This document shows positions 49,319-58,903 of a DNA stretch of 64,000 bases, piece by piece (within the stretch, counting starts at the first letter, position 1; every line of letters starts with the position of its first letter). Source of the DNA: Nitrososphaeria archaeon (GTDB taxonomy: Archaea > Thermoproteota > Nitrososphaeria > Geothermarchaeales > JDFR-13). Position numbers and translations under genes: made by a program. The stretch spans positions 22,312 through 86,311 of the forward strand of contig JALWXN010000001.1 of assembly GCA_027078545.1 (NCBI GenBank), written 5' to 3'. The notes beneath the pieces were generated by a model. It did no database searches. It saw only the letters and a program-made list of their open reading frames with translations, and was not told the DNA's origin.

Positions 49319-49807
49319 TTAGGCCTTACCCATATGTATCCTGGCTATGAAGTCTTCTAGGCTGCTGCTGTTGATGAGGGTCTCGAGGGCCTCCATGGGG
49401 CCGAGCCTGTCCACTGCCTCCTGGAAGGCTTCTAGGAGGAGGGTCTGTCTATAGGTGCTGGGGCCGCATCCCCTGGCTCTCCAGAAGATGTTCGACGCCT
49501 CTTCCAGCCTCTTCCCCAGGTATATGAGGTAGGCTATGGCTACTGTCCCAGTCCTTCCACATCCTGCTCGGCAGTGGAGGTATACCTTCTCCCCCCTGGA
49601 TCTGGCCTCGTCTATCTCCTTTATGGCTAGGCCTATGTTCCTGACCGGCTCCACGTCGAAGTCTGTTATGTGTAGACACCTCTCCCTGGGCTTGTTGGGA
49701 GCTGTGGGCTTCGCCCCACAGTCTAGTGAGACTATCCTGTCCACCTCTATGTCTAGGAGTATCTTGCCTGGCCCCACGTAAAGCCCTGGCACGAGCTCTA
49801 CTGGCAT
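49319..49807 (-). CDS. Dual-specificity/protein-tyrosine phosphatase
   Basis: HCRAGCGRTG (HCx5R). Confidence 0.9.
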   Translation of the reverse strand: MPVELVPGLYVGPGKILLDIEVDRIVSLDCGAKPTAPNKPRERCLHITDFDVEPVRNIGLAIKEIDEARSRGEKVYLHCRAGCGRTGTVAIAYLIYLGKRLEEASNIFWRARGCGPSTYRQTLLLEAFQEAVDRLGPMEALETLINSSSLEDFIARIHMGKA

Positions 49808-49860: not shown

Positions 49861-50088
49861 GTGTGGCTGGTGAGGAAGGTCTCTATAGAGATTCCGGAGA
49901 CTCTTTATAGGAGGCTCGAGGCCCTAGCAGGGAGGATAGGCGCTGGGTCTGTGTATGAGCTTGTTGTGGATCTCCTGAGGGAGGGTGTCTCCCGGCTGGA
50001 GGAGGATCTGGACTCTGGGCATGAGCTTAGTGAGGAGGAGGTTAGCCGTATCAGGGAGAGGCTTAGGAGCCTCGGGTATCTAGACTAG
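49861..50088 (+). CDS. RHH/CopG-like small protein with C-terminal LRSLGYL tail
   Basis: KVSIEIPETLYRRL (RHH strand-helix); ELSEEEVSRIRERLRSLGYLD. Confidence 0.8.
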   Translation: MWLVRKVSIEIPETLYRRLEALAGRIGAGSVYELVVDLLREGVSRLEEDLDSGHELSEEEVSRIRERLRSLGYLD

Positions 50089-50098
50089 GTGTCTACCT

Positions 50099-51247
50099 AT
50101 GGTTAGCCGTCCCCATGGGGGTAGGCTGGTCAGGAGGGTCCTGCCTAGGGATAGGTTGGAGGATATCCTCCGGGATAGTAGGGGGCTGCACCAGCTGGAT
50201 GTTGATGACACTATCTATAGGGATCTCGAGAACATAGGGTATGGCGTCTATAGCCCCTTGACAGGCTTCCTCGATAGTGTGGAGCTCGAGAGTGTCCTGC
50301 TTACCATGAGGCTGTCCAACGACCTTCCCTGGACAATCCCTATAGTACTGGATATCGATGAGGAGGCAAGAAGGTCGATAGGTATTGGCGATACGGTCCT
50401 ACTTAGGTATGGTGGACAGCCCGTGGGGCTCCTCATGGTTGAGGAGGTCTACCGTTACGACAAGAGGCTATATGCGGAGAAGGTGTTCAAGACTACTGAC
50501 CCGGCTCACCCAGGTGTCGCTAGGGTGATGTCTATGGGGGACTACTTGGTAGGCGGGTCTGTCGAGTATATCCCGATGGTTAGGGATGGCTATGAGGACT
50601 ACTTCCTCACACCTATGGAGACCCGTGTACTCTTCAGGGAGAGGGGCTGGGAGACTGTTGTTGCCTTCCAGACTAGGAATGTCCCACACCTTGGGCATGA
50701 ATATGTCCAGAAGACCGCCCTAACCTTTGTCGACGGCCTCTTCATAAACCCTGTGATCGGTAGGAAGAAGAGGGGGGACTTTAGGGATGAGGTTATCCTC
50801 GAGGCTTATAAGACGCTTATAAACAGGTTCTACCCGAGGGGCTCCGTAGTCATGAGTATCGTTAGATATGCTATGCGCTACGCAGGGCCCCGTGAGGCTA
50901 TCCACCACGCGGTTATGAGGAAGAATTTTGGGGCTACCCACTTCATAGTTGGTAGGGATCATGCCGGGGTGGGTAACTACTATGGGAGGTATGAGGCCCA
51001 GGAGATCTTCTCAGAGTTCCCCGACCTAGGTATTACCCCGCTCTTCTTCAGGGAGTTCTTCTACTGTAGGGGGTGTGGAGGAATGTCCAACGAGAAAATA
51101 TGCCCACATGATAGGGATCTCAGGATCTATATCAGTGGTACGAGGATTAGGGAGAGCCTCTCGCGGGGCGTCGTTCCGCCTGGGGAGATGATGCGTAGGG
51201 AGGTGGCTGAGACGATACTCTCCTTCGAGAACCCCTTCGTGGAGTAG
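50099..51247 (+). CDS. sat: Sulfate adenylyltransferase
   Basis: PHGG, YSPLTGF, FQTRNVPHLGHE, YAGPREA, VGRDHAGVG. Confidence 0.96.
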   Translation: MVSRPHGGRLVRRVLPRDRLEDILRDSRGLHQLDVDDTIYRDLENIGYGVYSPLTGFLDSVELESVLLTMRLSNDLPWTIPIVLDIDEEARRSIGIGDTVLLRYGGQPVGLLMVEEVYRYDKRLYAEKVFKTTDPAHPGVARVMSMGDYLVGGSVEYIPMVRDGYEDYFLTPMETRVLFRERGWETVVAFQTRNVPHLGHEYVQKTALTFVDGLFINPVIGRKKRGDFRDEVILEAYKTLINRFYPRGSVVMSIVRYAMRYAGPREAIHHAVMRKNFGATHFIVGRDHAGVGNYYGRYEAQEIFSEFPDLGITPLFFREFFYCRGCGGMSNEKICPHDRDLRIYISGTRIRESLSRGVVPPGEMMRREVAETILSFENPFVE

Positions 51248-51284
51248 TATCGAGTCTTTATCCCCCTAGCCAGGCTATACATAG

Positions 51285-52316
51285 ATGGGTGTCTCGATAA
51301 TGGATATGCCCAGTGAGATTAGGGAGAGGCTTGGCGGGAGTAGGGCCCTACTAGCCTTCCACTGGGATGCAGATGGAATCTCCTCGGCAGCCCTCCTACT
51401 GGATGTCCTGGGGCTGGATGCCGTGCTCTACACACCAGTTATAGGGCTGTATAGACTTGTCCCCGAGGACCTCCCCAGGGATATAGATGTAGATGCATTG
51501 GTGGTGGCTGATATGGGTGTATCCACAAAGGCTATCGAAGGGGTGGCGGAGTATCTAGGCGTCCCCGGCTACGTGTTTGACCATCACCATAGGGAGCCCT
51601 CGGATAGGCTGTTTATAGCCAGGTATATCGATGGGTATGGAGACCTATATCCCTCCGCCTCAATGGTCATCACTGATGCCCTTGGGATAGAGCCTAACAC
51701 GTTGACTATCCTTGGCATAGCGGGGGATCTCGAGGAGGGTGTTAGGGAGTCTAGGTACTATGGTGTTGTTGAGAGGGTTGCAAGTAGGTATGGCTTGAGA
51801 CCTAAAGACTTTATAGAGATATCCCGGCTTGTGGACACCAACTACCTATTCCTCGATAGGGCTGGTGTGATAGAGGCCGTCCATGCCCTGAGGGAGTATA
51901 GGGAGGATCCCAAGGCGCTACTGGCGAGGGATGACTGGAGGGCTAGGCTCGAGGAGTTTATGGGTGAGTTGGAGCGTCTCGCTAGGGTGGAGCTGGAGGA
52001 GGTCGATGGGATACTCTTCCGGGAGCTGGATAGTAGGCTGTACATAGTTTCTAAGCTTGGTAGGATGCTGAGTAGGAGGAACCCCGATAAATATGTCCTA
52101 CTAGGTGTGCCGCGGATGGCCAATGGCTATAGCCAGGTATACCTCAGGACTGGGAGGGGGGACGTGGATCTTAGGCCCCTGATCGAGAGGCTGAGGGGTA
52201 TGGGTCTCTATGCAGGGGGGAAGAGGAATGTCTTGGGCGCCGTTGTCGAGCCTGGTAAATATAGGGCTGTCCTGGGCGAAATATTTAGGTATCTAGGTGT
52301 CCCAGATGTCGTGTGA
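51285..52316 (+). CDS. DHH-family phosphoesterase (candidate PAP phosphatase)
   Basis: HWDADG, VADMG, FDHH, C-terminal AGGK; located between sat and cysC. Confidence 0.85.
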   Translation: MGVSIMDMPSEIRERLGGSRALLAFHWDADGISSAALLLDVLGLDAVLYTPVIGLYRLVPEDLPRDIDVDALVVADMGVSTKAIEGVAEYLGVPGYVFDHHHREPSDRLFIARYIDGYGDLYPSASMVITDALGIEPNTLTILGIAGDLEEGVRESRYYGVVERVASRYGLRPKDFIEISRLVDTNYLFLDRAGVIEAVHALREYREDPKALLARDDWRARLEEFMGELERLARVELEEVDGILFRELDSRLYIVSKLGRMLSRRNPDKYVLLGVPRMANGYSQVYLRTGRGDVDLRPLIERLRGMGLYAGGKRNVLGAVVEPGKYRAVLGEIFRYLGVPDVV

Positions 52317-52842
52317 TAAGGGGTTCGTCGTATGGTTCACCGGTATACCCGGCTCGGGTAAGACTACACTGGCTAGGATGCTTAGGGAGAGGCTGTCGAG
52401 CATGGGTCTATGCGTGGAGCACCTGGATGGGGATGAGGTTAGGCCTTGGCTGAGCCCCGAGGCGGGCTTCTCCCGTGAGGATAGGCTTAGGCATCTGAGG
52501 AGGGTGGCCTTCGTTACACACCTCCTGAGTAGGAATGGGGTGGTGGTGCTCGCCTCCTTCGTCTCCCCGTATAGGGAGGCTAGGGATCTGGCGAGGGAGC
52601 TGAATGGGGATAGGTTTGTGGAGGTCTATGTGAAGTGTCCGGTGGAGGTGGCTGTTGAGAGGGATCCCAAGGGCCTCTACAGGAAGGCTCTCAAGGGTGA
52701 GATTAAGAACATGACTGGTATCCAGGACGTCTATGAGGAGCCGCCTAACCCCGAGGTCGTGGTGGAGACTGATAGGGAGACCCCCGAGGAGAGTCTAGAG
52801 AAGATACTCGGTTTCCTAAGGAGTAGGGGCTTCATAGGATGA
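52297..52842 (+). CDS. cysC: Adenylyl-sulfate kinase
   Basis: WFTGIPGSGKTT, LDGD, FVSPY, RDPKGLY. Confidence 0.96.
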   Translation: MSQMSCDKGFVVWFTGIPGSGKTTLARMLRERLSSMGLCVEHLDGDEVRPWLSPEAGFSREDRLRHLRRVAFVTHLLSRNGVVVLASFVSPYREARDLARELNGDRFVEVYVKCPVEVAVERDPKGLYRKALKGEIKNMTGIQDVYEEPPNPEVVVETDRETPEESLEKILGFLRSRGFIG

Positions 52843-54407
52843 GTAGTAGGCGTATATTGCTGCTTGGGTGGGACGGGGTTCCGCCAGGCCTTATTAGGGA
52901 GCTTGTAGAGACCGGTAATACGCCTAATCTTTCAGAGGTGTTTGGGGAGGGGCGGTTCGGCGAGGTTGTAGCCCCCCTACCCATTGTGACTCCTGCGAGC
53001 TGGTACTCTGCATTTACGGGTGTGGAGCCATATAGGCATGGTATTCCCCACTTCGTCGTGATAGATAGGGAGTATAGGCTTAGATACATGTCTATATCCG
53101 ACCTCAGGGTCGAGGCTATCTGGGATGTCCTCGGTAGGCATGGTGTGGAGGGGCTCTATCTAAACCTCCCGGTCTCCACACCCGCGCCGAGGGTAACTGG
53201 GTTGTGGATAGGGGGTGAGCAGATCTATAGAGAGGTTAGGGAGGCAGACGTATATCCATCCGAACTCGTTAGAGAGCTTAGGACCCTGGGCTACATGGTT
53301 GGATACCCAAACATATCGACGGATCCCGGTAGCTATGTATCCGGCCTACTTATGGCTGAGTCGAGGCGACTAGACGTATTTACACGCCTGATGGATAGGC
53401 GTCAATGGGGGTTGTCAATCTACATAGCATACTCCCCCGACATAGTTCTACACGCCTTTTACGGGATGGATGGTTATCGGGAACATATCTATAGATGTTT
53501 CGAGGAGCTGGATCGATGGCTAGGGACACTCCTCAACCGTCTTGATAAGGAGGACATACTTGTCTTGATGTCTGATCATGGCCATGGATACAAGAATGGG
53601 TATATAAATCTCCTGGCGCTACTCAGGAGCATGGGGTTATTGGCGACCCGTAGGCCTAAAGGGTTGAGGATGAACTGGGTCCGGAGGGTAGGCCTGGTCA
53701 GGAGGATATGGTGGAGGCTCCCTGACCGTATGAGGAGGTGGATAGGGAGGTATGTACTGGGTAACATAGTGGTTCTCGACACACCCTCAAGGATCTCTGG
53801 AGCTAGTATAGACTGGGATGTGACAAAGGCCTTCCCCCAGGTGGATATAGGGGGTATCAAGATGCATAGGGCGGATCTCTTCCCCCGTGGCGTCTTGGAT
53901 AGGGGTGAGGCATATGAGCTGGCCGTCAAGATTGTCGAGGAGCTTAGGAGAGTCGACTTCGGAGGCTCCCCCATATTCGGGGATGTCGTCCTCAACTTCA
54001 ACGATGATCCGTTGACGCCAGACATATATCTAGAGCCCAGGGATGATCTCTGGTTCAAGTCTAGGGTTGAGGATGAGCTCATAATCCAGAACAGGCCTGA
54101 TAGGTATCTCTCTCCGACCCGGATAGATGTGGCTGGTGATAGGGCGTCGTACCATGTTAGGAATGGATTTATCCTTGTATATGGCGAGGATATAGAGCCA
54201 GGTGACGCTGGTATCATTAGGATGGTGGATGTTATGCCGACGGTTCTACATATGATGGGCCTACCGATACCTACGGGGCTGGATGGAGGTGTAGCAGAGT
54301 CTATTCTTACTAGGGAAGCTATTAATAGGGATGTAAAGTATGAGAGGAGTCTTAGAAGGGATCTTCGTGCAAGATCCCGTTCCCTTAGGAGGAGGCTCAA
54401 GAGGTAG
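52839..54407 (+). CDS. Alkaline-phosphatase-superfamily NPP-type protein
   Basis: LGWDG, PIVTPASW (Thr nucleophile), DIVLH, SDHG, H..NG, DVMPTVL. Confidence 0.88.
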   Translation: MSSRRILLLGWDGVPPGLIRELVETGNTPNLSEVFGEGRFGEVVAPLPIVTPASWYSAFTGVEPYRHGIPHFVVIDREYRLRYMSISDLRVEAIWDVLGRHGVEGLYLNLPVSTPAPRVTGLWIGGEQIYREVREADVYPSELVRELRTLGYMVGYPNISTDPGSYVSGLLMAESRRLDVFTRLMDRRQWGLSIYIAYSPDIVLHAFYGMDGYREHIYRCFEELDRWLGTLLNRLDKEDILVLMSDHGHGYKNGYINLLALLRSMGLLATRRPKGLRMNWVRRVGLVRRIWWRLPDRMRRWIGRYVLGNIVVLDTPSRISGASIDWDVTKAFPQVDIGGIKMHRADLFPRGVLDRGEAYELAVKIVEELRRVDFGGSPIFGDVVLNFNDDPLTPDIYLEPRDDLWFKSRVEDELIIQNRPDRYLSPTRIDVAGDRASYHVRNGFILVYGEDIEPGDAGIIRMVDVMPTVLHMMGLPIPTGLDGGVAESILTREAINRDVKYERSLRRDLRARSRSLRRRLKR

Positions 54408-54410
54408 TTT

Positions 54411-55799
54411 GTGATGAGGAGGCGTCTAGTTGTCTTTGGTCTGGATGCCGCTGCTCCTGAGCTGGTATTCAATAAGTTTCTGGATTACCTACCCAATTTC
54501 CGGAGGGTTATCGAGAGGTCTGTACATGGTAGGCTTAGGAGCTGTGACCCGCCTATAACTGTCCCGGCCTGGATGGTTATGATGACTGGTAGGGAGCCTG
54601 GGGAGCTTGGGCTCTATGGGTTTAGGCATAGGAGTGGCTATAGCTACACCGAGTATGAACTCCCGAGTAGCAGGTCTATCAGGAGGCCCCGTGTATGGGA
54701 TGTCCTTGGTGCTGAGGGGCTTAGGAGCTTCGTGATGGGTGTCCCACCCTCCTATCCACCGTATAGGGTTAATGGGTGGCTTATCTCATGCTTCTTGACT
54801 CCAGATGATAGTGTCCAGTTCACCCATCCCCTCCCCCTTAAGTATGAGGTTAAGAGGCTTGTTGGTAGGTATGTCTTCGACGTTCCTTTTAGGAGGGAGG
54901 ATAGGGACTGGGTTCTGGATAGGATCCATGAGATGACGGATATACATGAGAAGGTTGCCCTTGAGATGCTTGTGAGGAAGCCTTGGGACTTCTTCATGTA
55001 TATGGAGATTGGTCTCGACAGGGTTCAGCACGCCTTCTGGAAGTATATGGATAGGGGTCATAGGAGGTTTGAGGAGCATCCCCGCTTCTCAAGGGCTATA
55101 CTCGAGTACTATGTCAGGCTGGACAGGATACTGGGTGAGATCATTAGGAGGGCTGGGGACGCTGATATATTGATAGTCTCGGACCACGGTGCGAAGAGGA
55201 TGGATGGGGCCTTCGCTATCAATGACTGGCTGGTGGAGCAGGGCTATCTAAAGCTTAGGGGGGATGTGGAGCCAGGCACGAGGATCTCGAGGGCAGATGT
55301 GGACTGGGGGGAGACGATTGCATGGGGATGGGGCGGCTACTATAGCCGTATATTCCTTAATGTCGAGGGGCGTGAGGAGATGGGCGTAGTCTCGAGGGAG
55401 GAGTATGAAGATGTTCTTAGGGAGCTCTCTAGGAAGATCCTGGGTATCAGGGGGCCTGATGGCGAGGCGTGGCGTAACGTTGTCTATAGGCCTGTGGAGA
55501 TCTATCGGGAGGTTAATGGTAACCCCCCTGATCTGATGGTCTACTTCGATGATCTCTACTGGAGGGCGGCTGGTACGATGGGCTATGAGACGCCCTACCT
55601 GGAGGAGAATGATACTGGGCCTGACGACGCCGTCCATGACTATGACGGGATCTTCATATGGTATAACAGGGGTAGCGGTGTGGAGAGGGACGCCTCTATC
55701 TACGATGTCTTCCCAACCATCCTTAGGTTCTATGGCTTGGAGCCGCCAGAGGATATACGTGGGGAGGTTGTGGAGGAAGTCTTTAGGGGGCAGGGCTAG
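54411..55799 (+). CDS. Alkaline-phosphatase-superfamily NPP-type protein
   Basis: FGLDA, PPITVPAW, DRVQH, SDHG, DDAVHDYDG, DVFPTIL. Confidence 0.9.
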   Translation: MMRRRLVVFGLDAAAPELVFNKFLDYLPNFRRVIERSVHGRLRSCDPPITVPAWMVMMTGREPGELGLYGFRHRSGYSYTEYELPSSRSIRRPRVWDVLGAEGLRSFVMGVPPSYPPYRVNGWLISCFLTPDDSVQFTHPLPLKYEVKRLVGRYVFDVPFRREDRDWVLDRIHEMTDIHEKVALEMLVRKPWDFFMYMEIGLDRVQHAFWKYMDRGHRRFEEHPRFSRAILEYYVRLDRILGEIIRRAGDADILIVSDHGAKRMDGAFAINDWLVEQGYLKLRGDVEPGTRISRADVDWGETIAWGWGGYYSRIFLNVEGREEMGVVSREEYEDVLRELSRKILGIRGPDGEAWRNVVYRPVEIYREVNGNPPDLMVYFDDLYWRAAGTMGYETPYLEENDTGPDDAVHDYDGIFIWYNRGSGVERDASIYDVFPTILRFYGLEPPEDIRGEVVEEVFRGQG

Positions 55800-56943
55800 G
55801 TATTACCGCCCCACTCTCCACAAGCCTCTCGATCTCATCCTCGCTGTATCCGAGCATGGATAGGATCTCCCGGTAGTGCTGGCTCAGCCGTGGTGGGGGT
55901 ATCTGTGTATAGATCCTCCTACCATCGATCCTCATCGGTGGCTTGAGATAGGCCCTGCCACCGGGGTCTCTCCCCAGGGCCCCGGCCTCCTCGAGGTATC
56001 CACTCCTAACCATCTCGACCACCCTGTTGACGGGGGCCGTGGGTACACCTGCACTGCTTAGCTTCTCGAGGGCCTCCTCGAGGCTTAGCCTTGATATCTT
56101 CTCCCCTATCTCGCGGTCCACGTACTCCCTGTTCTCCACCCTATCCGGGTTGTGTCTACACCTGGGGTCTCCAAGTAGGTGTTCTAGGCCTAGTGCCCTG
56201 CAGAGCCTCTCGAATAGGTTGTCGTTAGCCGCTGCCACTGCTATCCATCTCCCATCCCTGGTTTGGTATGCCCTGTAGGGGACTATGGATGGATGTCCTG
56301 AGCCGTGTCTACCAGGCTCTATCCCGGCGTGGAGGGCTGAGTATACTAGGTAGGACATGGAGTATATCATGGAGTCCATGAGGGAGACCTCTATCATGGT
56401 GGGCCTTCTATTCCTTCGGAGTGCGTCGAGTATCGATACTGCTGCGTATAGCCCGGTGAAGATATCGGCTATGGCGAAGCCTACACGGGTGGGCTCCTCC
56501 CCCTCGTTGCCGGTGGCCATCATTATTCCTGAGTATGCCTGTATAATCAGGTCGTAGGCCGGCTGCCTAGCTAGTTTCGTGTCTGGGCTGTATCCCCTTA
56601 TGACGCAGTAGACTATCCTGGGATTCACCTCCCTGACCCTATCGTAGCCTAGGCCCAGCCTCTCGGCGACTCCATCCCTATAGTTGTGGATCAATACGTC
56701 TGCCCATCTAACCAGTCTTTCGATGACCTCTCTACCCCCTTCATTCTTCATGTCTATCGCTATGCTCCTCTTCCCTCTGTTGATGCTGTAGAAGTATGTC
56801 GAGACACCATTCACGATTGGTGTGTATAGCCTCGTCTCGTCACCCCATGGAGGCTCGACCTTGACTACCTCAGCTCCCAGCTCTGCTAGGACCATCGTGG
56901 CGAAGGGGCCTGCCAATACCCTGCTCATGTCGAGTATCCTCAT
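55783..56943 (-). CDS. Family III CoA-transferase (CaiB/BaiF)
   Basis: LAGPFAT..LAELGAEVVKVEP, NRGKRS, YDLIIQA, IADIFTG. Confidence 0.93.
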   Translation of the reverse strand: MRILDMSRVLAGPFATMVLAELGAEVVKVEPPWGDETRLYTPIVNGVSTYFYSINRGKRSIAIDMKNEGGREVIERLVRWADVLIHNYRDGVAERLGLGYDRVREVNPRIVYCVIRGYSPDTKLARQPAYDLIIQAYSGIMMATGNEGEEPTRVGFAIADIFTGLYAAVSILDALRRNRRPTMIEVSLMDSMIYSMSYLVYSALHAGIEPGRHGSGHPSIVPYRAYQTRDGRWIAVAAANDNLFERLCRALGLEHLLGDPRCRHNPDRVENREYVDREIGEKISRLSLEEALEKLSSAGVPTAPVNRVVEMVRSGYLEEAGALGRDPGGRAYLKPPMRIDGRRIYTQIPPPRLSQHYREILSMLGYSEDEIERLVESGAVIPSPAP

Positions 56944-57017
56944 AATACCTGTTATTCCTCCCGAGGGGTATTTGACGAATCCCTTAATGAACCAGTTATG
57001 TACTCCCTATTCTAGGT

Positions 57018-58688
57018 GTGTCTGGGATGAGGGTGTCGCAAAATCTGTTGAGGCTGATGGATGAGAGTATTGACCGTGGATGGTTCGACGTGGCAGAGGT
57101 GTCGGGCATAATCGGTGGCAGGGAGAAGACGCTCTCCACATTAATTGAGGGGTATGTCCTGGGCCTATTCAACTATAGGGGTGAGACTGTCTTCGAGCTT
57201 AGGAGGGAGGGGCTGGAGCTGCTGAATATATGGGGCTTCCTGGGTAGGCCAGAGGCTGATCCATGGATAGACACTAGGGTATACAGCATGCTCAGGACCC
57301 TCTTGATGAGGCCTGGTGGGATACCTGAGGACTGGGTAGGCCTCCTTGAGGAGAGGGGTCTAGCCACTGGTGATGAGCTCTCCCAGTATGCGGCTGAGCT
57401 ACTCTCCCTCATGGATAGGCTCGAGAAGACTATATTCCTGACCACCGGCTTCGCAGGGCTATTCACCACGTTTCCCGACGGCCCCGCTGAGAGGGTTAGG
57501 TTCCCCCAGGGATGGGAGCTCGCCGAGGCCATGTCCCTACTCGTAGCCTCTATACCTAATGGCCTCTACCTAGGCCTCACAGAGGCTGGTAGGACGCTTA
57601 AGAGGGCATTGAGGAACCTGGCTATACCCAGGGGTATACCGGTGGTTGTTAATAGGCGTATCCTGGAGGGTCTGGAGAGGCTGGAGGCCAGTGAGAAGAT
57701 CCCTGACGACCTTCTCCAGCTCCTGATAAGTCTCGACTATGTATCTGGCCTTGGACGGCTCGAGTATAGGGGTAGGATGGTTCTCAGGGCGTATAGGCTG
57801 GTTAGGAGCCCACCTGTCAATAGGCCGATGGCGATGACTGCTGAGGAGGAGCAGCTTCTGAGGGGTGTGGTGATTACGTGGAGGGAGAGGATGGATAAGA
57901 CGAATGTATATGCTACTAAGGAGAGGATTGCTAAGAACCTAGGTGTGGAGTGGACGGGCGACCTTGGGCTTAGCCTGAAGCATCTAGAGAGCCTGGGCCT
58001 GGTGGAGGAGTACTATGAGGATGGGAAGGAGGAGTATAGGCCGACGAAGGAGGGTGAGGAGTTGTCTGGGCTGCCCGGCCTGGGTGAGGGCACGAGTGTC
58101 GAGGCCGTCTCCTCCGTGGCGAAGACCGTATCTGCACTGTCCCCCAGTGAGGAGTGGGTCTCCGAGGCCCTCTCCAGAGGCATTCTTGGTGGGCAGGGGC
58201 CTACGAAGAAGGGTGAGATGCTCTATAGGGCTGGGTACTATGCGAGGAGGCCCTTCCTAACCAGGGATGAGGCTATAGCCCTGAGGCAGATGCCTGAGAG
58301 GAAGAGTGTGGATAAGTCCTACCTAGTCGGTAGGGGGGTGGATGAGAAGGGTATTAATAGGCTGGTAACGCGTGGATTGATAGAGCTCCTCCCCGACGGT
58401 AGGTATGTGATAACTGATGCAGGCCTCCTGCTCAAGACTGCCCTGGTAGCTGTCTCGCCGGGTATAGCCACGCCTGTCTATCCGACGCTGGTCAAGGTCT
58501 TGGAGGCGATCGATAGCCTCAACACGGATGATCCTGTCGAGATAATTAAGAGTACGAAGCTCTCGGTAGATGCTGTGAAGACAGCGTTGATCATCGGTAG
58601 GAACGCGAAGTATATAGGGCGTTCCGGTAAGGAGTTGACCCAGGCTGGAAAGGCGTTGTTGCAGGCGGCTAAGCTACTGGCCAGCTAG
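57018..58688 (+). CDS. Multi-winged-helix protein, probably DUF505 family
   Basis: Repeated L...GL....Y.LT..G wHTH-like units; WIDTRVYSML. Confidence 0.65.
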   Translation: MSGMRVSQNLLRLMDESIDRGWFDVAEVSGIIGGREKTLSTLIEGYVLGLFNYRGETVFELRREGLELLNIWGFLGRPEADPWIDTRVYSMLRTLLMRPGGIPEDWVGLLEERGLATGDELSQYAAELLSLMDRLEKTIFLTTGFAGLFTTFPDGPAERVRFPQGWELAEAMSLLVASIPNGLYLGLTEAGRTLKRALRNLAIPRGIPVVVNRRILEGLERLEASEKIPDDLLQLLISLDYVSGLGRLEYRGRMVLRAYRLVRSPPVNRPMAMTAEEEQLLRGVVITWRERMDKTNVYATKERIAKNLGVEWTGDLGLSLKHLESLGLVEEYYEDGKEEYRPTKEGEELSGLPGLGEGTSVEAVSSVAKTVSALSPSEEWVSEALSRGILGGQGPTKKGEMLYRAGYYARRPFLTRDEAIALRQMPERKSVDKSYLVGRGVDEKGINRLVTRGLIELLPDGRYVITDAGLLLKTALVAVSPGIATPVYPTLVKVLEAIDSLNTDDPVEIIKSTKLSVDAVKTALIIGRNAKYIGRSGKELTQAGKALLQAAKLLAS

Positions 58689-58696
58689 CACGTTAT

Positions 58697-58903
58697 TTAT
58701 AGGTATCCAAGGCTCCTCAGATTATCCTTTATCTTCTCCTCCTCCTCGGGGCTGTAGCTCCTCTCCTCCCCGCCCAGCGTCTCCTTGATAATGAATTCTA
58801 GGAGGTCCTCCACACTCTTGAATTCCCCGCCGCTCTCCTCGACTGTCTTCTTCAGTAGCTCGTAGGACTCCCTTGAGATCTCGATGCTGACCTTCTCAGA
58901 CAC
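58697..58903 (-). CDS. RHH/CopG-like small protein with C-terminal LRSLGYL tail (paralog of 49861..50088)
   Basis: KVSIEISRESYELL...YSPEEEEKIKDNLRSLGYL. Confidence 0.82.
   Translation of the reverse strand: MSEKVSIEISRESYELLKKTVEESGGEFKSVEDLLEFIIKETLGGEERSYSPEEEEKIKDNLRSLGYL

Follow-up and report, generated by a model that had tools for sequence, protein, structure and literature searches.

The archaeal sulfate-activation cluster was reportedly described in T. onnurineus by Lee et al. 2009 (J Bacteriol 191:3415), as TON_1704-1707. The T. onnurineus genes have been equated with PYCH_17520-17570 of P. yayanosii and Ferp_2428-2433 of F. placidus (PMC8268124). In Thermococcales and Archaeoglobi the cluster contains a copG/RHH gene together with genes for ATP sulfurylase, a DHH PAP phosphatase, a type I phosphodiesterase/NPP and APS kinase; in Ferp_2428-2433 and in Geoglobus the order is small protein-sat-DHH-NPP-cysC-TauE. 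TON_1706 is given as a PAP phosphatase (PMC4463584) and TON_1705 as a pyrophosphatase (PMC4463584, PMC8268124). The latter has a Km of 18.8 uM, a kcat of 2.1 per s and a kcat/Km of 1.1e5; the canonical pyrophosphatase (PPase) of the same organism has a kcat ~10^4-fold higher (PMC9653972).

Two further archaeal systems are close to the locus described here. MtPAPP, from Methanothermococcus thermolithotrophicus, is a DHH-family PAP phosphatase of solved structure (PDB 8A8K) and described enzymology (PMC10322725), encoded beside the ATPS and APSK genes. In that organism PAPS passes to an APS-reductase-like PAPS reductase and Fsr (PMC10322725), neither type of which was found in the genome examined here. 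In Halobacterium salinarum, Agl30 (VNG1056C) and Agl31 (VNG1057C), of the AlkP superfamily, are genetically established N-glycan sulfotransferases; their substrate is a glycan linked to DolP or to protein, one enzyme is membrane-bound and the other soluble, and they provide a precedent for an archaeal non-P-loop sulfotransferase (PMC11980604).

The locus lies in a 64,000-nucleotide stretch (the window) of a Nitrososphaeria archaeon genome that is 92% complete, ~8% being missing from the assembly. Open reading frames and Pfam/NCBIfam scans agree with the initial annotation in placing six tightly packed genes, all on the + strand, at 49861-55799, in the order RHH-sat-DHH-cysC-NPP-NPP. These genes, and a second RHH gene beyond them, are as follows:

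49861..50088, + strand: RHH1, a 75-aa RHH/CopG-like protein; its gene heads the cassette in 59 of 79 related loci
50099..51247, + strand: sat, ATP sulfurylase, with PUA_2 and ATP-sulfurylase domains (NF003166)
51285..52316, + strand: putative DHH-family PAP phosphatase of the MtPAPP type (phmmer against PDB 8A8K)
52297..52842, + strand: cysC, APS kinase (PF01583, TIGR00455)
52839..54407, + strand: NPP-A, a 522-aa AlkP/NPP-fold protein (PF01663 Phosphodiest, 77 bits)
54411..55799, + strand: NPP-B, a 462-aa cytoplasmic NPP-fold protein (PF01663 Phosphodiest, 157 bits)
58697..58903, - strand: RHH2, a second RHH-like protein, recognised in translation, with a C-terminal tail as in RHH1

Successive operon genes are spaced by 10, 37, -20, -4 and +3 nt, the DHH gene and cysC sharing a 20 nt overlap and NPP-A overlapping cysC by 4 nt. 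The arrangement is not due to chance, because it is seen again in most of the 79 loci, across many phyla; NPP-B is accompanied there by RHH in 59, sat in 56 and cysC in 50. The core of the operon is already known as the archaeal sulfate-activation cluster, in print since 2009, and as a cluster it is not the uncharacterised pathway that had been proposed. Nevertheless the locus differs from the published cluster in several respects. The order is sat-DHH-cysC-NPP instead of sat-DHH-NPP-cysC, there is no TauE gene of the kind found in Ferroglobus and Geoglobus, and two genes are additional: the inserted AlkP-fold paralogue NPP-A and a second RHH gene with the tail.

The prediction that the operon makes PAPS is borne out by Sat and CysC, both of which exceed their family cut-offs. 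Sat matches PF01747 (293 bits), PF14306 (169 bits) and NF003166 (517 bits, cut-off 387), and CysC matches PF01583 (195 bits) and TIGR00455 (218 bits, cut-off 139). The DHH protein scores 24.9 bits against Pfam DHH, below the cut-off. In a phmmer search of the PDB it aligns over its full length with 8A8K (E 3.6e-23; residues 18-337 against 18-332), including the metal and DHH motifs (HWDxDG, DHH and GGK). On this sequence likeness it is assigned as a PAP (3'-phosphoadenosine 5'-phosphate) phosphatase of the MtPAPP type, in keeping with the role first suggested for it; MtPAPP is its best match, whereas it is only ~27% identical to the Archaeoglobi protein.

In both NPPs the nucleophilic Thr and the full set of six metal ligands are present. 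In NPP-B, residues D12, T50, D203, H207, D258, H259 and H409 are invariant among 46 sequences; in NPP-A, D12, T51, D201, H205, D246, H247 and H439 are conserved, position 51 being T or S. The AF2 model of NPP-B (pLDDT 96) matches ENPP1/3, while the best PDB matches of the NPP-A model (pLDDT 89.8) are NPP3, ENPP1 and Xac NPP. With Xanthomonas NPP (2GSN), ENPP1, ENPP3 and ENPP6 they share the fold (Foldseek E 1e-15 to 1e-18), a site for two metals and a nucleophilic Thr, albeit with an identity of only 11-16% and a TM-score of ~0.5-0.6. Unlike these enzymes, the operon NPPs are cytoplasmic, lack a signal peptide and contain large family-specific insertions; no close relative of either has a solved structure. 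The initial annotation had treated the two alike. However, NPP-B is a conserved member of the cassette, whereas NPP-A is lineage-specific and drawn from a separate, far larger AlkP-fold family, which is huge, uncharacterised and COG3379-like.

In eukaryotes, APS kinase, ATP sulfurylase and pyrophosphatase occur as fusion proteins; these sulfate-activation fusions are reportedly the subject of Patron et al. 2008 (cited in PMC8268124). They are mirrored by the main fusion partner of NPP-B, which is Sat. Of 159 long protein clusters in the NPP-B family, the best 120 are almost all PUA_2 + ATP-sulfurylase + Phosphodiest fusions, so that the family is joined to Sat in more than 100 clusters, in many bacteria. 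It is also fused to CysC in Nitrosopumilaceae, and an NPPB-CysC protein of 646 aa is found in L053 and L059. The Sat-NPPB and NPPB-CysC proteins would thus be a prokaryotic analogue in which a pyrophosphatase is physically tied to sulfate-activating enzymes, although the eukaryotic domain is a family I PPase and the fold here is AlkP/NPP.

NPP-B and the F. placidus protein of the sat-DHH-NPP-cysC-TauE cluster share 53% identity across 95% of the NPP-B length (53-54% for the Ferroglobus and Geoglobus members together), and identity across archaeal phyla is 50-74%, with 80 invariant columns in the family. TON_1705, PYCH_17550 and the gene of the Ferroglobus cluster are its counterparts, and its probable function is that of a pyrophosphatase coupled to sulfate activation. 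Because TON_1705 has PPase activity in assay, and because Sat fusions occur in many bacteria, a role as a PPi-removing helper suits NPP-B better than one as a sulfotransferase. The PPase assignment rests on a single in vitro study of the Thermococcus counterpart. The 92%-complete genome encodes a membrane H+-PPase (831 bits), but a search for a family I PPase found none; a soluble pyrophosphatase seems to be missing from this organism.

The reading that we favour, with a probability of roughly 0.55, is that the locus is a PAPS factory with NPP-B as PPi helper, NPP-A as the best sulfotransferase candidate and regulation by RHH proteins. From this analysis it draws on gene identities, conservation, fusions and a search in which known consumers were not found; from the literature, on pyrophosphatase assays of the NPP-B counterpart and on the enzymology of DHH-type PAP phosphatases. 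Sat would make APS and PPi, and hydrolysis of the PPi by NPP-B, at its cytoplasmic two-metal site with a Thr nucleophile, would allow the unfavourable Sat reaction to proceed. CysC would then phosphorylate APS to PAPS. PAPS would be spent on sulfation via no recognisable sulfotransferase, the best candidate being NPP-A, translationally coupled to cysC; NPP-A is predicted to lie on the membrane surface, where its substrate would be a lipid-linked glycan or glycolipid. The inhibitory by-product, PAP, would be destroyed by the MtPAPP-type DHH enzyme.

The reported lack of a sulfotransferase, CysH or Apr in the window extends to the 92%-complete genome for the families searched: Sulfotransfer_1, _2 and _3, NIR_SIR, AprA and Sulfatase (PF00884) were not found there. 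The sole PAPS_reduct match was rejected as CysH; the protein is a TtuA/NcsA tRNA thiolase. As no CysH, AprA or sulfite reductase was found, PAPS is probably spent on sulfation and not on sulfur assimilation.

We infer, tentatively, that NPP-A is the best candidate for the PAPS consumer, a role that is possible rather than probable, because of its overlap with cysC, the occurrence of its family in AglB/glycan loci and its predicted membrane-binding helices. A relative with an NPP-A of 44% identity keeps the gene order. Other family members stand beside the cassette in Nitrososphaeria (L045, L072 and L081) and within an AglB/glycosyltransferase/sulfatase-like locus (L094). NPP-A has an Arg/Trp-rich amphipathic insertion (~residues 271-322; amphipathic moment 0.80 and net charge +5 at residues 289-306) and a basic C-terminal helix, and these basic helices are predicted to bind membrane. 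Agl30 and Agl31 may be likened to NPP-A, though their donor and mechanism are left undefined (PMC11980604) and they belong to a sulfatase-like branch (PF00884; nearest structures GAG and ulvan sulfatases) as opposed to the NPP/PF01663 branch. Most cassette loci, those of close relatives (L010-L012) among them, lack NPP-A, which therefore cannot be the cassette's general PAPS consumer. The original suggestion that the NPPs are non-canonical sulfotransferases is thus reasonable for NPP-A, and unlikely for NPP-B in view of its PPase counterpart and Sat fusions.

Were NPP-B nonetheless a PAPS-dependent sulfotransferase, which we consider unlikely, Thr50 would take the sulfuryl group from PAPS for transfer to a sugar-type acceptor, and PPase would be a promiscuous side activity. 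NPP-B is the sole uncharacterised enzyme common to every cassette, and it adjoins or is fused to CysC even where sat is not nearby (L045, L053, L059 and L081); this linkage and the extreme conservation of the family seem to exceed the needs of a simple PPi scavenger. The cassette often adjoins sugar-nucleotide or AglB genes in other loci, and the kcat of TON_1705 is low (PMC9653972). A canonical sulfotransferase above cut-off was found in none of 16 NPP-B-positive Thermoproteota genomes, and a strong PAPS_reduct match is missing from four of these and from the organism's own genome; the PAPS consumer is likewise not identified in P. yayanosii (PMC8268124). Among 151 sampled Thermoproteota, all 17 NPP-B-positive genomes have CysC. 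Against a sulfotransferase role, 48 others in the sample have CysC and no NPP-B. Furthermore, the Km of TON_1705 for PPi is physiological and its kcat/Km is ~1e5, the dominant fusion partner is the PPi producer, and neither an acceptor-binding feature nor a PAPS motif was identified in NPP-B.

Less likely still, both NPPs may be hydrolases without sulfuryl transfer, PAPS being used by an enzyme of an unrecognised family encoded elsewhere or PAPS/PAP serving as signals, a messenger role that has been raised (PMC8268124). NPP-A would then act at the membrane surface as a phosphodiesterase or pyrophosphatase, for example in lipid head-group remodelling or phosphate scavenging. The models are nearest to nucleotide and lipid phosphodiesterases (ENPP1/3, ENPP6 and Xac NPP), most cassettes lack NPP-A, and the operon abuts PhoU-PstSCAB in relatives and PhoU-TrkA_C pairs in Bathyarchaeia. 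However, NPP-A is still translationally coupled to cysC in the relative with 44% identity, NPP-A-family paralogues recur beside cysC in several Nitrososphaeria lineages, and a dedicated PAP phosphatase implies a real PAPS-consuming flux. Ordinary assimilatory sulfate reduction, with reductases that are non-homologous or encoded in the unassembled ~8%, is improbable: although the cluster has been termed 'assimilatory' (PMC8268124, PMC4463584), later steps in M. thermolithotrophicus use atypical enzymes (PMC10322725) and 12 of the 16 NPP-B-positive relatives have strong PAPS_reduct-domain proteins, these proteins are long (430-700 aa), multi-copy and unlike CysH; CysH-type, AprA-type and NIR_SIR matches are all missing from the organism's own genome, and the context is one of glycan and sugar-nucleotide genes, not cysteine synthesis.

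In the favoured PAPS-factory reading, the RHH proteins are the presumed regulators of the operon. RHH1, whose P. yayanosii counterpart is annotated copG (PMC8268124), may alternatively start at a GTG at 49870. It has no Pfam match itself, and RHH_1 is weakly matched by 11 of 34 family members. An acidic linker forms part of the protein, which ends in a conserved tail (...RL+xLGYLD) that is present in 67 of 68 family members, with L68, L71, G72 and Y73 invariant. RHH2 converges on the operon; between it and NPP-B lie one gene for a CoA-transferase and one for a DUF505 protein. In relatives it directly follows NPP-B (L010, L011, L013 and L091) or is divergent from RHH1 (L014-L016).

The operon at 49861-55799 comprises six ORFs on the + strand, with successive gaps of 10, 37, -20, -4 and +3 nt, in an archaeal genome of 1.24 Mb that is 92% complete. 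The ORFs, these gaps of -20 to 37 nt and the profile matches confirm the co-oriented, tightly packed run described in the initial annotation. Both AlkP-fold proteins match PF01663, for which the gathering cut-off is 23 bits.

Genes of the operon, in order, with the evidence for each
First gene, + strand: RHH1, small RHH/CopG-like protein, 75 aa; no Pfam match of its own, RHH_1 matched weakly by 11 of 34 relatives
Second gene, + strand: Sat; NF003166, 517 bits
Third gene, + strand: DHH protein; full-length homology to MtPAPP
Fourth gene, + strand: CysC; TIGR00455, 218 bits
Fifth gene, 52839-54407, + strand: NPP-A, 522 aa; PF01663, 77 bits
Sixth gene, 54411-55799, + strand: NPP-B, 462 aa; PF01663, 157 bits

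MtPAPP is a crystallised archaeal PAP phosphatase (8A8K; PMC10322725). Residues 18-337 of the DHH protein align with residues 18-332 of this structure (E 3.6e-23), and the HWDxDG, DHH and AGGK motifs are aligned. With full-length homology and both DHH and metal motifs, the protein is a predicted PAP phosphatase of the MtPAPP type. That the operon has a PAP phosphatase of its own implies genuine PAPS consumption with release of PAP. Divergent from the operon, at 49319-49807 on the - strand, lies a gene for a dual-specificity protein phosphatase (DSP), and the order RNR, malic enzyme, DSP and operon is kept in a related locus, L091. Downstream, between NPP-B and the gene for a second RHH protein, RHH2, a family III CoA-transferase gene (-) and a gene for a 556-aa DUF505 protein (+) occupy 55783-58688; the pair looks like an insertion, because RHH2 directly follows NPP-B in L010, L011, L013 and L091.

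The co-oriented RHH/CopG-like, Sat, DHH, NPP and CysC genes constitute the published archaeal sulfate-activation cluster. Jin et al. (2021) described the same cluster as PYCH_17520-17570 and Ferp_2428-2433, with copies in Aciduliprofundum, Aeropyrum and Ignicoccus; its first gene was named copG, and the NPP gene was presumed to encode a PPi-degrading enzyme (PMC8268124). The window differs from the published order, copG-sat-DHH-NPP-cysC, in that cysC and NPP are swapped. Ferroglobus placidus and Geoglobus acetivorans carry the same gene set as the window operon, in the order small protein-sat-DHH-NPP-cysC-TauE, adjoining AglB and glycosyltransferases. NPP-B is 53% identical to the F. placidus NPP over 95% of its length and 54% identical to that of G. 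acetivorans, which, to judge from these two members, places it in the same orthologous family as the NPP of the published cluster. The proposal of an uncharacterised pathway does not hold for the cluster as such, the core of which is already in print (PMC8268124, PMC4463584). The window operon is distinguished by its inserted paralogue NPP-A and by the complete absence of a recognisable PAPS consumer.

That absence, first noticed in the window, extends to the 92%-complete genome, which was searched for Sulfotransfer_1, _2 and _3, CysH, AprA, NIR_SIR and PF00884. No Sulfotransfer family scored above cut-off; the best match, to Sulfotransfer_3 at 12.9 bits, was far under it and was rejected. Only Phosphodiest and Metalloenzyme were matched by NPP-A and NPP-B, and a P-loop sulfotransferase domain (Sulfotransfer_1/2/3) with the 5'-PSB and 3'-PB motifs that define canonical sulfotransferases was found neither in these proteins nor elsewhere in the genome. 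The searches of the genome likewise gave no match to NIR_SIR or to the PF00884 sulfatase family, and no AprA, the best match (19.6 bits, in a 579-aa open frame) being rejected as far under cut-off. The only PAPS_reduct match was rejected as CysH, since it is a tRNA thiolase of the TtuA/NcsA type. The pairing of a PAPS/APS reductase with a sulfite reductase, by which assimilatory sulfate reduction is recognised, was not found in the 92%-complete genome. A similar situation has been reported in P. yayanosii, where no sulfotransferase and no enzyme that reduces sulfite was identified (PMC8268124).

Among 151 sampled Thermoproteota genomes, NPP-B is present in 17, all of which (17/17) also encode CysC; a further 48 are CysC-positive and lack NPP-B. 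None of the 16 other NPP-B-positive genomes has a canonical sulfotransferase over cut-off. Proteins with a strong PAPS_reduct domain occur in 12 of the 16 and are absent from four, though those of the 12 genomes may not be CysH, because they are long and often multi-copy.

The two AlkP-fold proteins are only 26% identical to each other. By score, fold and active-site residues, both belong to the NPP branch of the alkaline phosphatase superfamily (PF01663), having the Thr (or Ser) nucleophile and the six Asp/His ligands of a two-metal site that mark this branch. In NPP-B, D12, T50, D203, H207, D258, H259 and H409 are invariant among 46 sequences, while in NPP-A, D12, D201, H205, D246, H247 and H439 are conserved among 50 sequences, with T in 35 and S in 15 at the nucleophile position, T51. 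The AF2 models (pLDDT 96 for NPP-B and 89.8 for NPP-A) both resemble ENPP1/3 and Xanthomonas (Xac) NPP most closely in the PDB. When the PDB was searched by sequence, NPP-B had no solved relative and NPP-A no more than marginal matches to NPPs.

NPP-B is best read as a pyrophosphatase coupled to sulfate activation, with a probability of roughly 55%. It is 97% identical to a protein from a 'Candidatus Geothermarchaeota' MAG and has thousands of relatives at 50-74% identity in Bathyarchaeia, Asgard archaea, Methanomethylicia and Archaeoglobi. The counterpart of NPP-B in Thermococcus onnurineus is TON_1705, which PMC4463584, following Lee et al. (2009), lists as a pyrophosphatase; TON_1706 is given there as the PAP phosphatase. 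Tabulated kinetics for TON_1705 are Km 18.8 uM and kcat 2.1 per s, with an optimum at pH 9.5 (PMC9653972). The pyrophosphatase reading is favoured because this counterpart has measured activity on PPi at a physiological, micromolar Km. It is favoured also because the dominant fusion partner of NPP-B is Sat, the PPi producer: Sat-NPPB fusions of ~870 aa form over 100 clusters, those of Roseiflexaceae and Anaerolineae among them, and the best 120 of 159 clusters of long NPP-B relatives (P0287-P0406) are nearly all PUA_2 + ATP-sulfurylase + Phosphodiest. Eukaryotes have ATPS-PPase fusions, which provide an analogy. In addition, the genome encodes a membrane H+/Na+-pyrophosphatase (831 bits; G000:C4:590526-592505), and no family I soluble PPase was found in its 92%-complete sequence. 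A single fusion of NPP-B to phosphoglucosamine mutase was also seen (P0386, 1003 aa).

That NPP-B is itself a sulfotransferase, as the initial annotation had suggested for both NPP proteins, appears unlikely in the light of TON_1705 and the Sat fusions. It would fit the low kcat of TON_1705, the exceptional conservation of the family and the tie of NPP-B to CysC in loci without a nearby sat, and several genomes with the cassette have no known PAPS consumer. A 646-aa NPPB-CysC fusion is found at two Nitrosopumilaceae/Thaumarchaeota loci (L053:9986-11926, L059:5260-7200). On the pyrophosphatase reading, NPP-B would probably do no more than pull the ATP sulfurylase reaction, in which case the search for a sulfotransferase should shift to accessory COG3379-like paralogues such as NPP-A. 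The earlier interpretation was thus partly right: it is weakened for NPP-B and survives for NPP-A as a candidate.

A role for NPP-A as the PAPS consumer is tentative and less likely than not. Its absence from most cassettes, including those of the close relatives L010-L012, counts against such a role, and close relatives of NPP-A are few. One, 44% identical, lies in the order RHH-sat-DHH-cysC-NPPA-NPPB, followed by RHH2 on the opposite strand and then PhoU and PstSCAB. The wider family, which consists of COG3379-like AlkP-fold proteins of 500-570 aa, is very large: an exhaustive phmmer search returned 10,013 representatives at E <= 1e-3, of which 4,741 reach E <= 1e-10. Members adjoin the cassette in Nitrososphaeria (three at L045, and at L072 and L081), and an archaeal glycosylation locus (L094:1-15209) contains two NPP-A-like genes, a sulfatase-family (PF00884+SGSH_C) gene, several glycosyltransferases and AglB. 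The NPP-A model consists of an NPP core, a low-confidence helical insertion and a basic C-terminal helix; for residues 289-306 of the insertion the amphipathic moment is 0.80 and the net charge +5, and in the model the insertion and the C-terminal helix may act as membrane-surface anchors. A third AlkP-fold paralogue in the genome (L003; G000:C4:793644-797474), 41% identical to NPP-A and with no exact-sequence record found, lies directly downstream of a gene for a 393-aa polytopic membrane protein without a Pfam family. The latter has a 57%-identical counterpart, again linked to a paralogue, in another metagenome contig (L096:4561-9584). No glycan or lipid genes were found in the L003 neighbourhood.

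There is precedent for a non-P-loop sulfotransferase in the AlkP superfamily, though in another branch and with an undefined mechanism. Agl30 and Agl31, sulfatase-like members of the superfamily, sulfate the Halobacterium N-glycan, as demonstrated by deletion and heterologous expression (Zaretsky et al. 2025), with neither donor nor mechanism given (PMC11980604). They belong to the PF00884 branch, whereas NPP-A and NPP-B have no PF00884 match at E <= 0.01 and share only the superfamily with them. Agl7 (HVO_2046) of Haloferax contributes to DolP-hexose sulfation; no statement of its protein family was found in the literature searched. Full-text searches returned nothing relevant on archaeal AlkP-superfamily PAPS sulfotransferases or on sat/cysC/NPP clusters.

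A broader proposal, somewhat more doubtful still, is that NPP-A and part of the COG3379-like family (~10,000 representative clusters) might form a new class of PAPS-dependent NPP-branch sulfotransferases, sulfating membrane-anchored glycans or glycolipids via a covalent sulfo-enzyme intermediate on the Thr/Ser nucleophile at the two-metal site. PAPS cassettes without a recognisable PAPS-using enzyme are found in many archaea and in bacteria such as Aminicenantes, as published papers agree, and telling NPP-A and NPP-B apart brings the question of the consumer into sharper focus. If a COG3379-like paralogue were a sulfotransferase, it would represent a new enzyme class and allow sulfated glycans and lipids of archaeal surfaces to be predicted from genomes; an enzyme of the NPP-A type would explain how archaea without a P-loop sulfotransferase spend PAPS. 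If no such paralogue is one, the known operon is present here simply as one more ordinary copy.

RHH1 and RHH2 (58697-58903, -) share a C-terminal tail, [FY][ST]xEEExx[IV]+xRL+xLGY[LI], of 20 residues, in which an acidic stretch precedes RL+xLGY[LI] (window 50020-50088 and 58697-58760). It is present in 67 of 68 RHH genes of related loci and at the end of 101 of the 162 best NPP-A-like family representatives (P0132-P0286). NPP-A and NPP-B lack it; the other AlkP-fold family members, NPP-A included, mostly end in a basic helix or have no extension. A similar ending, LxxLGY[LI], is seen in some CysC proteins. With NPP-B and RHH1 each supplied as an alignment, complex prediction gave scores of 0.13 and 0.17, the mark being 0.32.

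Across 79 loci, taken as one-genome-per-species contigs with non-overlapping gene sets, the counts within 10 kb were 59 for a tailed RHH gene, 56 for sat and 50 for cysC, all lower bounds because many contigs end early. Carriers of the cassette include Geothermarchaeota, Bathyarchaeia, Asgard archaea and Thermoplasmatota among archaea, and Aminicenantes/Saccharicenans, Rubrobacter, Dehalococcoidia and Armatimonadota among bacteria. In Aminicenantes (among L021-L086, for example L030:10279-11226 and L075:7728-9044) a TviC-like UDP-sugar (UDP-GlcNAcA) 4-epimerase comes after the cassette, joined at some loci by two UDP-glucose 6-dehydrogenases, neighbours which suggest a sulfated uronic-acid polymer. 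PhoU and PstSCAB follow the operon at L091:11471-16107 and at L092, and in Bathyarchaeia (L058:11517-12705, L054, L085) a pair of PhoU+TrkA_C proteins comes after RHH-sat-NPPB. Such PhoU neighbours may tie the cassette to the control of phosphate (or anion) uptake.
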